Positions 1 through 64,000 of a stretch of DNA of 64,000 bases are shown here, piece by piece. The DNA is taken from assembly GCA_964016885.1 (NCBI GenBank), contig OZ024744.1, positions 36,332,001 through 36,396,000 on the forward strand, in the 5' to 3' direction. Each line of letters begins with the position of its first letter. Position 1 is the stretch's first letter. The notes under the pieces are model-generated. The model did not search any database. It was not told where the DNA came from and saw nothing but the letters and a program-made list of their open reading frames with translations. Source of the stretch: Eledone cirrhosa. Its lineage: Eukaryota. Made by a program: the position numbers and the translations under genes.

Positions 1-2750
1 TATACGGATGTCTTCCACATTGCTGTAGCTTTTAATGTGTTTATTATCGGGGCTACCTTTTCTACAGATTGCGTTGTTCAGTGTTTTGGCTACATCATGC
101 CTCATAGATAGATAGTACCGCGAAGACATCTTTGGACAGCTTCGATGTTAATTCTGCAGAATCTGCACTTGTTATTACACCTAGGTGTTTTGCCTGCATC
201 TCTATCTCTTTTGTGAATCAGGTATTTCATTTTAATTTCCTGTTCTTGGATCACAAAAGCATATCCTTGAAAGTGGGGAGCCAATATAGCGGTTATTGGT
301 CCAAGATAGCCTACTTTCCTTATCTATATTACTCCCACTCTGCAGCTTCCTGGCAACATACCCATGCATTATTTTTTGCTGATAGGCATGCAGTTTTTCA
401 TCCTTGGATTCACTGCGATACTGCTGAGCGACATCTCTGGGTGTGAGTTTTTGATTATCACACAAGGAATATCTCTCGAGGAGTTCCTTCCCAACTCTCA
501 TGATCTTATCTGTTTCATGCAGATAGACTTGTTCGAGAGACGGGCTCCGACGCTTCAAGGTTCGTAGATGTTGTTGGAGGGATATGATGCGATATTCAAA
601 TGCTGTCTGGACTGATGTTAGGCCTCAGCCTCCCTGCTTACGTTTCAAGTAAAGTCGGTCTATGTCACTGTTGATGTGGAAGTTTCCGGTGTTGTTTAGT
701 ATTTTTCGAGTTCTAACATCAACTGCTCGGATTTCGTCTATCGTCCAATTGAGTATTCCAAAAGTTGGTGTTAGGACAGGCACAGCAAACACATTGTGAG
801 CCACTGTTTTGCTTTTGCGGAGAGAGTGCCGAAGACCAAACCTTTCTTAATCAGGCGTAGTATTCCCTGGTTACGCGTTCCTTATTACAGATACCATTAT
901 AGGTTATTTTCTCATCTATTCCCAGGTATCTGTAGCAATCCTCATCAGATATTGGTGAAACAGTTAGGCCATTGATGACAATATTGCTAGATTGGGTTGT
1001 TGTTTTTCTCCGCTTAACAGTCATGTATGAGCATTTATCTTGGCCAAACTCCATTCCTATATCCTTTGAGAATGTTGTAACCAGGTCAAGATTTTTCTTC
1101 ATCCCATCCATGTTCTTGGCATAGAGTTTCAGATCATCCACAAAGAAATGATGGGTTAGGTTCGTATTTCTGTCCTCCAGTGAGCCAATGATGTATCCCT
1201 CACATTTCTTGAGCAGAAAGGACAAGGGGTTTAATAACAAGATGAATAATATCACTGAGACACTGTCTCCCTGAAAGATACTCCTCCGATATTTTATTTT
1301 ATCAGTGAAAATAGAGTCCTCCCGCTCTGTCTTTAACCATAGGATAGTAGCCCAAGAAGAAGACAGCCTCTCTGAAAATAATGTCTGGGACTTTAGCAAG
1401 TTGGAGGGCCGCTATCTCCAAGAGTGGGGAACACAATCGAAATCTTTCCTTTAGTCCAGCCAGACTAGCCATATGCCTCCTAAGTTGTCGCACCTCCGAC
1501 ATCGCAGTTTTGTTGATTAGGAGTTGTTCAGCACATCCCCAAACCTCTTTCTTTCGAGCTGCTTGTTCATCTGTGATGGTGTTATTATTTTCACAGTGAT
1601 CTTGGAGGAATAGGTTCAAGCAGGCTGTATACATCTTATACATCAGGATCTGGCATGCAATGGGTCGGGAATTATTTGCCAAGTGAGTGTCTTTGTTCTT
1701 GGGGACCAGTAACGTTTGTGCTAATGTCAACCATTCTGGTATAAGTGAATCTCCCTTAGAACTTGTTGGTAGAGGTTAGTAAGATACCTCTGATAGAATA
1801 TCAGTTTTTTGTACCAGTAGTCGACAATCTTGTCTCTTCCTGGTGTTTTCGTATCTTGGAGTTTTCCTATCACAATTTCAAGTGTACCCTCACTTATTTC
1901 GTATGTTTTTGTTGTAATGTAGGAGCAATAGTTCTTTCAGATTTCTTTTAGCCACACTGCATCTTGGTTGAAATTCTTCTTTTCGTCCCATATTTTTCTC
2001 CAAAAGGGATCTATGTCTTTTTGGGATGGGGCCTCGGTGACATTTATTATTTTGCCCTCCATACCTTTATAGATTGATGTTTGGTTTTGTCTGAATCTTT
2101 TATTAAGCAGTTTTCTTTCGTCTACTTTCCTCAGGTATCGGCGTTTTTCGCTAACAGCTCCCAATTCTTGTTTGAGGGTGATCAGCTTATATTGAAGTTT
2201 TCTGGTTCTACTGCAACCAATTTATCTTATTTTTACGTTCAACAAACGTCGCTCGTTTGCGTAATTGTTTCGTTGTGACGTGATTTAGCTCTGGGTGTAT
2301 TTCATACCAGTGTAGCTTCATTCTGTTCATATAACCAATGGAGGGATTGTTTTTTGCCTTTTTATATCAATTAAATCAATCATCATTAAGTTTGCAACTG
2401 CAAGAGAAATGCGATTTATAATTTCGGTTTCTTCTCTAGCTACAACTGAATAAATTTTGTTTACCTTTCTCGTTCTTTTTCTTCGGTACTTCCTTAATGT
2501 TGTTATTGTTGATGTTGTGTTTAGCCATGCTGCTTGTAGCAAATCCTTGTAAAATGAATTATGTATTCAGTCGAATATCTCTACGAATTCGAATAAAAGG
2601 TGTCTTCAGTAGATATAGTTAGAAGAATAACTAGTTAGAAGAATAACTAGTTATTCAACATGACTGGTAGTTGCGGCATTACTCTCGGAGATAGTATTCA
2701 TCTTAAATTTAATGAATAATCACCCACACCAAAATATGCGACTGATCGCA
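1..2750 (-). mobile_element. Decayed R4/Dong-like (RLE-type) non-LTR retrotransposon, family A; 5' end present, runs off window start
   Basis: Fragmented minus ORFs carry RT motifs RPIACQ..YK, IFQGDSVS and HHFFVDDLKLY, then QEQEI, CRFC (CCHC) and RYYL.MRHD. The 5' end abuts (TATG)n at 2751. Many stops and frameshifts. Confidence 0.88.
851..1730 (-). pseudogene. Reverse transcriptase core fragments of family A element
   Basis: ORFs 1302-1730 and 851-1399 with RT motifs (QGDS, FVDD), frameshifted. Confidence 0.85.
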
Positions 2751-2850
2751 TGTATGTATGTATGTATGTATGTATGTATGTATGTATGTATGTATGTATG
2801 TATGTATGAATGTATGTATGTATGTATGTATGTATGTATGTATGTATGTA
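2751..2850. repeat. (TATG)n microsatellite
   Basis: Direct tandem repeat. Confidence 0.97.
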
Positions 2851-3089
2851 CGTATGTGCGTGAGTGTATGTGTTTGTATGTGCTCGTAAGTGCATGTATG
2901 CATACATATATGGACACACAGGCACGGACACAGACTCACACACATATATATATATGTCTATACATACGCATATATATACATATATATATATGCATATTCA
3001 TTTATTATTATGCTGGTTCCAGTCAATGAACTGCGCCCATGTTTGGGCATATGTATAATATACCCTTGCATAAACACATATACACAAGC

Positions 3090-3232
3090 ACACACACACA
3101 CACGCGCGCACACACACACACACACACACACACACACACACACACACACACACACACACACACACACACACACACACACACACACACACACACACACACA
3201 CACACACACACACACACACACACATACACACA
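3090..3232. repeat. (CA)n microsatellite
   Basis: Direct tandem repeat. Confidence 0.97.
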
Positions 3233-61583: not shown

Positions 61584-61765
61584 CGGTGGATAGGTAGTAT
61601 CGGTAGAGGGTTGGACGCCATGCTTTCCAGCATAGTTACGTCCCTTTACGATCTGAGTTCAAATCCCGCCGAGGTTGACTTTGCCTTTCATCCTTACGGG
61701 GTCGATAAAATAAAGTACCAGTAATGCACTGGGTAATTGCTGGCCTTGTGCCTAAAGTAGAAACA
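61584..61765 (+). mobile_element. tRNA-derived SINE with 30-bp target-site duplication
   Basis: attatttgacgagtgatgataatctgctca at 61554-61583 and 61766-61795. Confidence 0.92.
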
Positions 61766-62584
61766 ATTATTTGACGAGTGATGATAATCTGCTCATGTAT
61801 AGCGAATGTTGTTGTTTTGGTTGCTTAATTCAAATTATAATAAATTGTAATGTATATATGGGCCACTAAGTTTTCTGGGATATTTCCCATGCAAATATTA
61901 AATCAGATGAGACTTAGAATTGAATATTGCTCTCACATTTGAACGGTACTGTAGCTACAAATACGGAAATATCAAACTCCATTTTTATGTTATTAGTAAT
62001 AACCTATTACTAAATATTCTCACGGAGCTGACAAGTGTCTCTAGGTCTTTCTCATTATTGCCATATAACTCCAGGTCATCGAAGAATTGAAAATGGTTTA
62101 CTATTTTTCCTTCTTTCTTAAACTATATTCAGCATTTATTTTGCCAGGAAAATCTCAGTGATTTAATACGTTTCAACCAGTCTGGGTGCTTTCCAATTTG
62201 GTAATTTTGCAGCGTATTTCACAATAAGCTTCTGAGTAATTATTACATCAACCTACTGTTTTAATTATCTTACTTCCTTTTGTATTTTAGTTATTCACTC
62301 CGCCACGTTTCTATGGCTAACATTGTTGCCTCATATATCACTCTAAAACCCTTTGTTTCTCTTTGCATGAGAAGAGGTATCTCTAATTAATATCTGTAAT
62401 TAGCCCACTTCACGTCTCAGCCTCATTATGCTATTATTTATTCGTCTGTCCATTCTCCTTGTAACAAACATCTTTGGCTATTACATCTGCTTGCATTTTG
62501 TACAGATTAATAGTATATATCCTATTAAATGGCGGAACAATATTGCTTCTATTTTGTTTATTTTTTGTTATTATTATTATTATT

Positions 62585-62781
62585 GTGGATTGGCAGTATT
62601 GGGAGAGGGTCGGACGCCATGCTTTGACGTATAGAGTTACGGCCCTTGCCATTCTGAGTTCAAATCCTGCCGAGGTTAACTTTGCCTTTCATCCTTACGG
62701 GGTCGATAAAATAAAGTACCAGTAATGCACTGGGTAATTGCTGGCCTTGTGCCTAACGTAGAAACAATTATTATTATTATT
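62585..62781 (+). mobile_element. tRNA-derived SINE in (ATT)n
   Basis: Close match to the 39698 copy; (ATT)n on both sides. Confidence 0.88.
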
Positions 62782-64000
62782 GATCTGTTCGGACGTCCTT
62801 TTTGCTCGCTCCCAGCAAGTCACTTTATTTGCCTGTTAAAATTATTTGTTGTTAAATATTTCTTGTTGTGTAGGTGATATAAGCCCTTAGACTTTGCCCT
62901 GTGAAGGTGAAAGTAAAATATTTGGGCCTTTTGACCCAAATATTTGAACATTTTACTTTAAAAAAAAAAATTGTTTAAAAAAAAAACATGGCTGAGTCAC
63001 GCCCCCCCCCCCCCCCAGCAATATGTCTGATGTCGTCTGACAACGGCGTAAAAGTTGAGAGGAGGGTTACAAAAATTGTTACAACAGACACCACCACAAA
63101 CAACGTGAACAAAGACAACACTGAGAACACTAATTTCGAAAAGATTACCACACCAGCTACATCAATAACAGCGTCAACCAAAATACAGACAACAGAAAAA
63201 AATGACAACAAATGCAACAACGATATTAACACCACTAACAAGAAAATAAACAACGACAACACCAACAGCAACAATACAAATTGCACCGAAAACAACAGCA
63301 ACGGTGGCACCAAAAACACAACAAACTACAACATTGATAATAGCAACAACACCAACAACACCGTTCGTAGCAACAGCAACAACACCAACAACACCGTTCG
63401 TAGCAACAGCAACAACACCAACAAAAAGACCAGTAGCGACAGCAATAATGGTATCGCTAAAAAAGGGGCCACTTCTTTAGCAGATGTGGCCCGAAATATA
63501 GAAACAGTGCTAGCCATGAAAGGGATGGCAGTCGCAGGAGCCATGGTGTCGAGAAACGACAACATAGTTTCCCTGAAACCTCCACCCGATTTCTTCAAAG
63601 ACTGCGCACGGTGACTTACCGCACCGTAAGCAAAATGTCGCATCGGGTGGAGAGAGCCATGGAGGTTCAAATCCAAACGGCCTTGGGGCGCGTCTGGGCG
63701 CGGAAAACACACATCACCCGAGGCAAAAAGTACGGCACAATAGACGTACTTTTCGCCACCCACCAAGAGGCGAAGTCTCACTCTTTGGAAACCCTAAAGA
63801 GTGAGGAGATAGTCTTGGTGCCCTCCTACTGCGGGCAGAAAATTGTGAAGATCAAAGTAACCTAGGTCCCAACCGACGTGCCCATACATTGGCTGGCCGC
63901 GTCTGTACTGGCTGGAATCGAGGAGAAGACCACCATACGGCAAATACAGAGAATGGGAAGAGAGAACTGGTCAGGAATAGGCATGCAAATGCTAATACAG
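62782..64000 (+). mobile_element. 5' end of a further Tx1-clade element (5' UTR plus disrupted ORF1) inserted in (ATT)n; runs off window
   Basis: ORF 62988-63614 is Asn/Thr-rich with SLADVA and LKPPP. 63611-63865 has YRTVS..KYGTIDVL..PSYCGQKIVKIKV, aligning to T1 FRTIS..LYGSLSIL..PTYMGRRTKKIKI. Confidence 0.8.

Follow-up and report, generated by a model that had tools for sequence, protein, structure and literature searches.

The window examined here is a 64,000-nucleotide stretch of the Eledone cirrhosa genome (contig OZ024744.1, positions 36,332,001 to 36,396,000, forward strand), which holds R4/Dong-like and Tx1-like non-LTR retrotransposons, i.e. elements lacking long terminal repeats. 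Their junctions, in the window and across the genome, show that young families of such elements lie mostly in particular microsatellites and in one orientation, each endonuclease likely nicking one strand of one repeat. The families concerned are the R4/Dong-like families A and B and the Tx1-like elements T1 to T5. Their copies in the window, with the associated repeat tracts, are as follows (RT, reverse transcriptase; ORF, open reading frame; AP, apurinic/apyrimidinic; UTR, untranslated region).

1..2749, minus strand: R4/Dong-like family B copy, 5' end intact, internal deletion; 3' end about 625 bp left of the window; 87-91% identical to the full-length B copy L247; 5' junction in (TATG)n
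2750..2857, no strand: (TATG)n tract adjoining the 5' end of that copy, from the sequence
9189..11061, minus strand: family A, 5'-truncated, (TATG)n on either side; Pfam RVT_1 and zf-RVT
11751..15974, minus strand: family A, full length (4.2 kb); one stop-interrupted ORF with RT, CCHC and restriction-like endonuclease motif; 5' end as in genomic copies L204, L205 and L208
16929..18827, minus strand: family A, 5'-truncated, from window self-comparison
19988..20068, no strand: left end of the (ATCT)n array with T1, a stub, T2 and T3 inside, from the sequence
20069..25773, plus strand: Tx1-like T1, full length; zinc knuckle in ORF1, and AP endonuclease, RT and zf-RVT in ORF2; same 5' end as L187
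25830..26090, plus strand: 5'-truncated stub of the T3 subfamily, 98.8% identical to the T3 3' end, (ATCT)n on either side
26173..31211, plus strand: Tx1-like T2, 5' end intact, about 0.8 kb shorter than its sibling L191
31253..37140, plus strand: Tx1-like T3, full length, from ORFs, Pfam domains and an endonuclease structure match
41570..42847, minus strand: family B, truncated 5' end in (TATG)n, 3' tip missing, from sequence comparison and the junction list
44084..47863, plus strand: Tx1-like T4, 5'-truncated, inserted in (ATT)n of an RTE element; 93% identical to the full-length L225
51415..51515, minus strand: stub of a family B 3' UTR, broken at both ends, from sequence comparison
52589..53850, minus strand: family B, 5'-truncated with internal deletion, (TATG)n on either side
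53899..56208, minus strand: old, decayed relative of family B, about 70% identical to B and grouping with it in the tree
62782..64000, plus strand: Tx1-like T5, 5' end intact, continuing about 4.3 kb past the window

All A and B copies in the window are on the minus strand and every intact junction adjoins (TATG)n, so that this part of the earlier note is borne out by the junction list. The R4 junctions without (TATG)n are all broken ends: the B stub at 51415-51515 lacks the repeat on either side, and the B copy at 41570 lacks it at its 3' end, which stops within the element's own TATG-like UTR. Three family A copies lie in one common (TATG)n array; the window comprises 18 (TATG)4+ tracts, all in one orientation, and no (CATA)4+ tract. 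T1, the stub, T2 and T3 are, as also claimed, on the plus strand with (ATCT)n on each side, and all belong to one array. The placement of T4 and of the element at 62782 in (ATT)n likewise held: T4 lies between (ATT)n tracts, and T5 is preceded by (ATT)5, which is the tail of a short interspersed nuclear element (SINE) at 62585-62766. As T4 and T5 are only about 72% identical, they are separate families. No R4 or Tx1 junction was found in (TA)n or (CA)n in the 64-kb window, in agreement with the earlier note, but (TA)n is not empty, since N1, a SINE, and the 3' end of a Helitron adjoin it. By itself the window carries little weight, as tracts are common to neighbouring copies, which represent few independent events. 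Two further observations concern these elements. At the genomic locus L009, a T3-type stub exhibits an ATCT-rich flank on both sides, longer than an ordinary target-site duplication. Beyond the window, the 3' end of T5 is replaced by Penelope-like RT/GIY-YIG sequence (L031:6330-7458).

Junctions across the genome

With regard to the whole genome (3.0 Gb), searches with the family ends gave 35, 209, 157, 1511 and 1553 candidates, of which the best 35-40 per family were scored after fetching the upstream sequence and mapping both junctions. A junction was counted when the sense-strand repeat unit lay within 16 nt of it. Four self loci, three segmental duplicates (L096, L215 and L216) and the loci L199 and L200 were left out, nine copies with the 5' end beyond the locus were excluded from the 5' counts only, and 3 T4, 10 B and 10 T5 matches were listed outside the tabulation. 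The junctions of L020, L045 and L236 were set by hand, as automatic extension had merged tandem neighbours. The null was taken from 20 random 10-kb regions (C1-C4 and C28).

At the 5' junction, (CATA)n was present in 31/36 copies of family A and 19/25 of family B, (ATCT)n in 18/33 of the T1-T3 group, and (ATT)n in 19/32 of T4 and 28/29 of T5. The null rates per position were 0.0061 for CATA, 0.0018 for ATCT and 0.0018 for ATT. The unit in reverse orientation was found at 0/155 of these junctions, which upholds the fixed strand polarity claimed for each family. At the 3' junction, the sense unit was observed in 37/37 copies of A, 26/28 of B, 26/34 of the T1-T3 group and 31/36 of T4. The 5' flanks are not unique sequence, as 5'-truncated copies also carry the repeat at their 5' junction: considering these copies only, the unit was within 16 nt in 29/33 (A), 14/19 (B), 15/25 (T1-T3 group) and 13/25 (T4), and within 40 nt in 32/33, 15/19, 19/25 and 14/25, respectively. 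The tracts used are not the commonest ones, random DNA comprising 125 TA, 70 CA, 15 CATA, 5 ATCT and 14 ATT tracts.

According to the criterion of Kojima (PMC4494074, drawn on, like the other papers cited here, through excerpts of its text), a family is target-specific when one sequence type makes up more than 20% of its flanks; across A, B, the ATCT group, T4 and T5 the value is 55-97%. The repeats typical of Kibi and Koshi are present at few 5' junctions, (CT)n at 2/33 in the ATCT group and (TTC)n at 1/32 in T4, so that neither group has the Kibi or Koshi target.

RTE was intended as a non-specific control and was dropped since it proved TATG-biased; a SINE family was used in its place. This SINE, which has its own short ATT tail, exhibits (ATT)3+ at 0/29 5' ends, as a self-made tail predicts.

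Tracts shared by opposite strands, and regional polarity

(TATG/CATA)n and (ATT/AAT)n are each common to two element classes on opposite strands. The community is thus not partitioned by microsatellite, as had been proposed, since each tract type serves both the AP-endonuclease class and the R4 class. The other features of the window, several of which take part in this sharing, are as follows.

6211..6836, plus strand: Helitron-like 3' end; helicase-like fragment, hairpin and CTAG, then (TA)n; without Pfam match
16056..16657, plus strand: N1 copy in (TATG)n; N1 is non-autonomous, 610 bp long, with a 5' UTR piece and a 3' stem-loop that are both RTE-like
19082..19674, plus strand: N1 copy, from window self-comparison
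42948..43557, plus strand: N1 copy, (TATG)n on the left and (TA)15 on the right
43700..44057, plus strand: RTE 5' UTR, left boundary approximate; contiguous with 47916 onward in uninterrupted paralogues
44058..44083, plus strand: (ATT)n of the RTE 5' UTR, the T4 target, empty in 12/24 RTE paralogues
47916..51414, plus strand: RTE body (AP endonuclease, RT) from Pfam matches, 3' end lost
51955..52564, plus strand: N1 copy, tail-to-tail with a family B copy
61586..61769, plus strand: SINE of the control family, target-site duplication about 30 bp long, no repeat in the 5' flank
62585..62781, plus strand: SINE with (ATT)5 tail flanking the T5 5' end, from the sequence

The element at 43700-51414 is presumably an RTE, judging from its architecture, and that at 6211-6836 is taken to be a Helitron from its motifs; in 19 genomic copies of this Helitron-like end, (TA)4+ follows in 7/19 and T in 19/19. 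In the case of (TATG)n, the tract precedes 9/14 of the 5'-truncated RTE copies. N1 exhibits TATG or TA at 25/29 5' ends and 27/29 3' ends, and in a set of 84 N1 3' ends the next sequence is TATG in 64, TA only in 14, CATA in 2 and none of these in 4. RTE and N1 are oriented opposite to R4, and 20/65 R4 copies stand tail-to-tail with an RTE/N1-type end. In the case of the ATT-type tract, the flanking 217 kb add three families: T6, another Tx1 family, in (ATT)n (7/10), and the R4 families D (11/18) and E (4/10), both in (AAT)n. In both shared tract types the T-rich strand is the sense strand for AP-endonuclease elements and the A-rich strand is the sense strand for R4. On the sense strand, A and B pair with (CATA)n, D and E with (AAT)n, T1-T3 with (ATCT)n, T4, T5 and T6 with (ATT)n, and RTE and N1 with (TATG)n or (TA)n.

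Several side observations were made on these elements. N1 is abundant (3102 first-look candidates) and young (98%), and has several related 3' stem-loop variants; the stability of its 3' hairpin is not unusual (z -1.0), and Rfam gave no match in the window or in 13 neighbouring loci. Short palindromic or inverted-repeat elements, resembling miniature inverted-repeat transposable elements, are located at 3924-4743 and 4761-5162, within or beside (TA)n. One copy of family D (L385:3990-7415, minus strand) has an uninterrupted ORF of 1141 amino acids, is located in (AAT)n, and may be a young, intact element. At L384-L390 (window -109240 to -42609), a near-continuous array of about 66 kb comprises RTE, N1, Tx1 (T4 and T6) and R4 (A, B, D and E) members joined via (ATT)n and (TATG)n.

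Polarity extends over the region. In 281.5 kb, R4 segments number 24 on the minus and 1 on the plus strand, Tx1 segments 16 plus and 0 minus, RTE segments 5 plus, and SINEs 14 plus and 7 minus, with Penelope mixed; the polarised domain spans roughly 270 kb (C28, about 36.22-36.49 Mb; window -110 kb to +160 kb), and a T4 copy about 151 kb upstream is on the minus strand. Separate clusters agree in polarity in 8/9 cases (two-sided p 0.04), a value to be read with the window having been picked for this trait and the clusters perhaps being non-independent. Random regions exhibited no polarity concordance (18 versus 26 pairs, mostly SINEs). Nested targeting accounts for the polarity inside an array, such as the one of about 66 kb, and not for the agreement of the 8/9 clusters. 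A host gene behind the regional polarity was considered and rejected: ORFs matched only Helitron, Penelope or RT pieces or gave weak matches, the strand skew was inconsistent, and no host exon was found in the 281.5 kb (117 ORFs scanned of 256).

Clades, relatives and known systems

We use the labels R4, Tx1, RTE, Helitron and Penelope as assumptions based on architecture and motifs, rather than on named reference sequences. Families A and B (4.1-4.2 kb) have a single ORF with a non-LTR RT (RVT_1, E 2.7e-23) and a zf-RVT match and no Exo_endo_phos match; CxxC..H..C and RPD..E can be read in the translation. A C-terminal CCHC followed by a restriction-like endonuclease PD..E is what we take to define the R4/Dong clade, and the N-terminal W..N..Y..S.P..G..R..W pattern common to A and D may be that of the R4-type N-terminal region, which lacks C2H2 fingers. 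Among named homologues, the closest to the family A protein comes from Argonauta hians (49% overall). For the R4 C-terminal ORF, no relevant match was found in the PDB. T1 to T6 exhibit the Tx1 architecture, with an ORF1 zinc knuckle (zf-CCHC weak, E 0.047) and an ORF2 comprising AP endonuclease, RT and zf-RVT, and the endonuclease matches an L1-EN variant structure. The Tx1 label is presumed from this architecture, the absent poly(A) and motifs.

The target repeat tracks the protein tree in both clades. The ATCT and ATT groups of Tx1 split at 100/99 (endonuclease and RT, unrooted, 25 rows), with several ATCT subfamilies. Over the RT region, A and B share 55% identity with each other and 36-38% with D and E; in quick trees they cluster with the Argonauta protein, and D and E fall elsewhere. 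A metagenome scan gave 45 loci, of which 17 were inspected and 11 fell within the A/B lineage. Of these contigs, 8/11 are flanked on at least one side by (CATA)n or (CTTA)n: L405 and L410 carry (CATA)n on both sides, L412 carries (CTTA)n on both sides, and (CTTA)n lies at just the 5' end in two others and just the 3' end in three (two of them near-identical); the remaining three have neither repeat. The flanked relatives are L404, L406, L408, L409, L412 and L414, together with L405 and L410. With protein identities of 36-51%, they are likely to come from other hosts, so that the tetranucleotide specificity looks like a property of the lineage, which suggests a deep tetranucleotide-targeting R4 sub-lineage. 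In the Tx1 endonuclease, residue 194 of T3, in the hairpin loop, is S in 13/15 ATCT rows and M or I in 9/10 ATT rows. It is one of 17 diagnostic columns in a single phylogenetic contrast, and is thus a candidate specificity position resting on that one contrast.

Several known systems resemble the present one. Dong, of the R4 clade (Bombyx, Anopheles and the snail DongBg), targets (TAA)n (PMC3812793; PMC2887409). Families A and B share with it a single ORF with RT, CCHC and restriction-like endonuclease motif and a microsatellite location, and D and E sit in Dong's own repeat, (AAT)n; A and B, in contrast, use (CATA)n instead of (TAA)n and form a separate lineage, a comparison made with the published description of Dong. 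Among AP-endonuclease elements, Kibi targets (TC)n, Koshi (TTC)n, Waldo ACAY and Mino AC (PMC3812793), and crocodilian Tx1 elements target (TTCC)n or (TTTC)n (PMC4494074). The Tx1-like families resemble Kibi, Koshi and crocodilian Tx1 in being two-ORF AP-endonuclease elements inserted in microsatellites, also in tandem, and the repeats of Kibi and Koshi are occupied by certain copies here, (TC)n by members of the ATCT group and (TTC)n by members of T4. Nevertheless, their main units are (ATCT)n and (ATT)n, a distinction drawn from descriptions only. Waldo, an insect element of the R1 clade with an AP endonuclease, shares a repeat class with A and B, as ACAT is a rotation of CATA, whereas the user here is of R4 type. 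Further cases are the TG target of Togen, and HERO (PMC4640811). RTE elements are known to carry microsatellite tails (PMC2887409; PMC6007223); the present RTE likewise has them in its tail, as well as in its UTRs, and probably seeds new tracts in this way. It differs in that its 5'-truncated copies also follow (TATG)n and its tracts are used antisense by R4. In the SaTar arrays of guayule and rice, unrelated elements are assembled modularly via microsatellite targeting (PMC5907723); these are, unlike here, non-autonomous DNA transposons, and no strand rule is described in the abstract of that paper.

The earlier note had proposed families with tetranucleotide targets; the enrichment of (CATA)n and (ATCT)n agrees with this, while crocodilian Tx1 and Waldo indicate that such targets are not new as such. 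Microsatellite targeting is known, and the element-repeat pairings seen here were not found reported: the literature searched, as excerpted (including PMC9115989, PMC8967140, PMC10294476 and PMC8869645), mentions neither R4 elements in (CATA)n or (CTTA)n nor Tx1 elements in (ATCT)n or (ATT)n, a search that did not extend to most subscription papers, among them Kojima and Fujiwara 2004, or to Repbase/Dfam, in which such records may well be present.

Origin of the targets and of their polarity

In target-primed reverse transcription, the nick lies on the strand opposite the element's sense. The endonucleases of A and B would thus nick the TATG strand, those of D and E the ATT strand, and those of the Tx1 groups the AGAT or the AAT strand, with reverse transcription probably primed at the nicked repeat strand. 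The tails and UTRs of RTE and SINEs may supply part of the targets. As each insertion would leave repeat on both sides, arrays would grow with fixed polarity. The safe-haven role that the earlier note ascribed to the tracts is conjectural. A more ambitious reading comprises an undescribed deep R4/Dong C(A/T)TA sub-lineage in distant hosts, new (ATCT)n/(ATT)n Tx1 lineages, and both endonuclease classes sharing microsatellites antisense, mutually feeding targets and building polarised arrays of tens of kb; we put it forward tentatively, at slightly less than an even chance.

The main competing explanation is that the RNA sets the target, the repeat units at the transcript end annealing to a loosely nicked genomic repeat and thereby fixing target and polarity. 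The listed Tx1 3' junctions lack poly(A), although AATAAA is located about 10 nt upstream, and RNA-end priming has been proposed for RTE (PMC6007223); it likely applies to RTE and N1 here, whose flanks mix TATG and TA. As a general account it appears unlikely, because the control SINE enters non-repeat sites despite its ATT tail, and short tail homology alone therefore does not yield long-tract targeting here. The agreement of target and protein tree also speaks against it, yet RNA ends are co-inherited with the protein. It is very improbable that the repeats are self-made, with 3' tails and with 5' repeats arising by template jumping onto other transcripts or from an expanded short duplication. 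Tandem arrays are indeed common, and the R4 copies adjoining an RTE/N1 tail are of the kind expected. However, T4 splits an RTE 5' UTR at an (ATT)n site that is uninterrupted in half of the paralogues, as listed above, and the (ATT)n therefore preceded the insertion, an order of events that the data establish for T4 alone. T4-type 3' ends occupy this site in five RTE paralogues, four of which belong to a single C27 cluster and may be duplicates; in further paralogues the site is taken by T6, family D or SINE pieces. Beyond most 5' tracts lies non-element sequence or another element class: by rule, the tract is a same-clade tail in 8/33 copies of the Tx1 ATCT group, 1/36 of A, 7/32 of T4 and 6/25 of B, and the 29 T5 flanks judged by eye comprise 11 SINE tails, 3 Tx1 tails and 15 others. 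In family A, moreover, the 5' tract is longer than the 3' tract (median 61 versus 26.5 bp). Random insertion followed by selection purging copies outside microsatellites has as little to commend it. The region may be tolerant, given that no host exon was found in it, but selection would not prefer the rare CATA and ATCT to the commoner TA and CA, nor fix the strand, and SINEs persist at non-repeat sites.

That the endonuclease sets both repeat and strand remains the probable explanation, and several points weigh against it. It is drawn from junction patterns, and L1 endonuclease variants nick less sharply in vitro than they integrate (PMC1950540). The census sample consists of top matches and is skewed to young, close copies, and the D, E and T6 counts come from loci chosen for other families and are biased, a genome search for the 3' end of family D having given no match despite the existing copies. 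Specificity is leaky, as 15/33 copies in the ATCT group and 13/32 in T4 fail the strict test; many misses are degenerate repeats, later insertions or ends without a clear boundary, and some lie in (TC)n, (TA)n, (CA)n or (TTC)n or in sequence without repeats. An automated search gave no clean paralogous empty site for the CATA or ATCT families. At least two B copies (L242 and L251) follow an R4 3' end beyond those counted by rule. Target-site duplications with non-repeat letters are few, namely 13-14 bp in L018, 18 bp in L037 and one of 16 bp in L027.

The abundant long interspersed nuclear elements (LINEs) with recent activity in octopus include Dong-R4 and L1-Tx1, with 1129 and 421 recent insertions, respectively (PMC13282606); the word "target" is absent from the main text of that paper as excerpted. 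Fixed targets would explain the landing sites of octopus LINEs and the long compound repeat arrays. The ATCT versus ATT groups of Tx1, and the CATA, CTTA and TAA users among R4, provide pairs of close relatives for mapping specificity determinants, which would be a resource for site-specific insertion tools.

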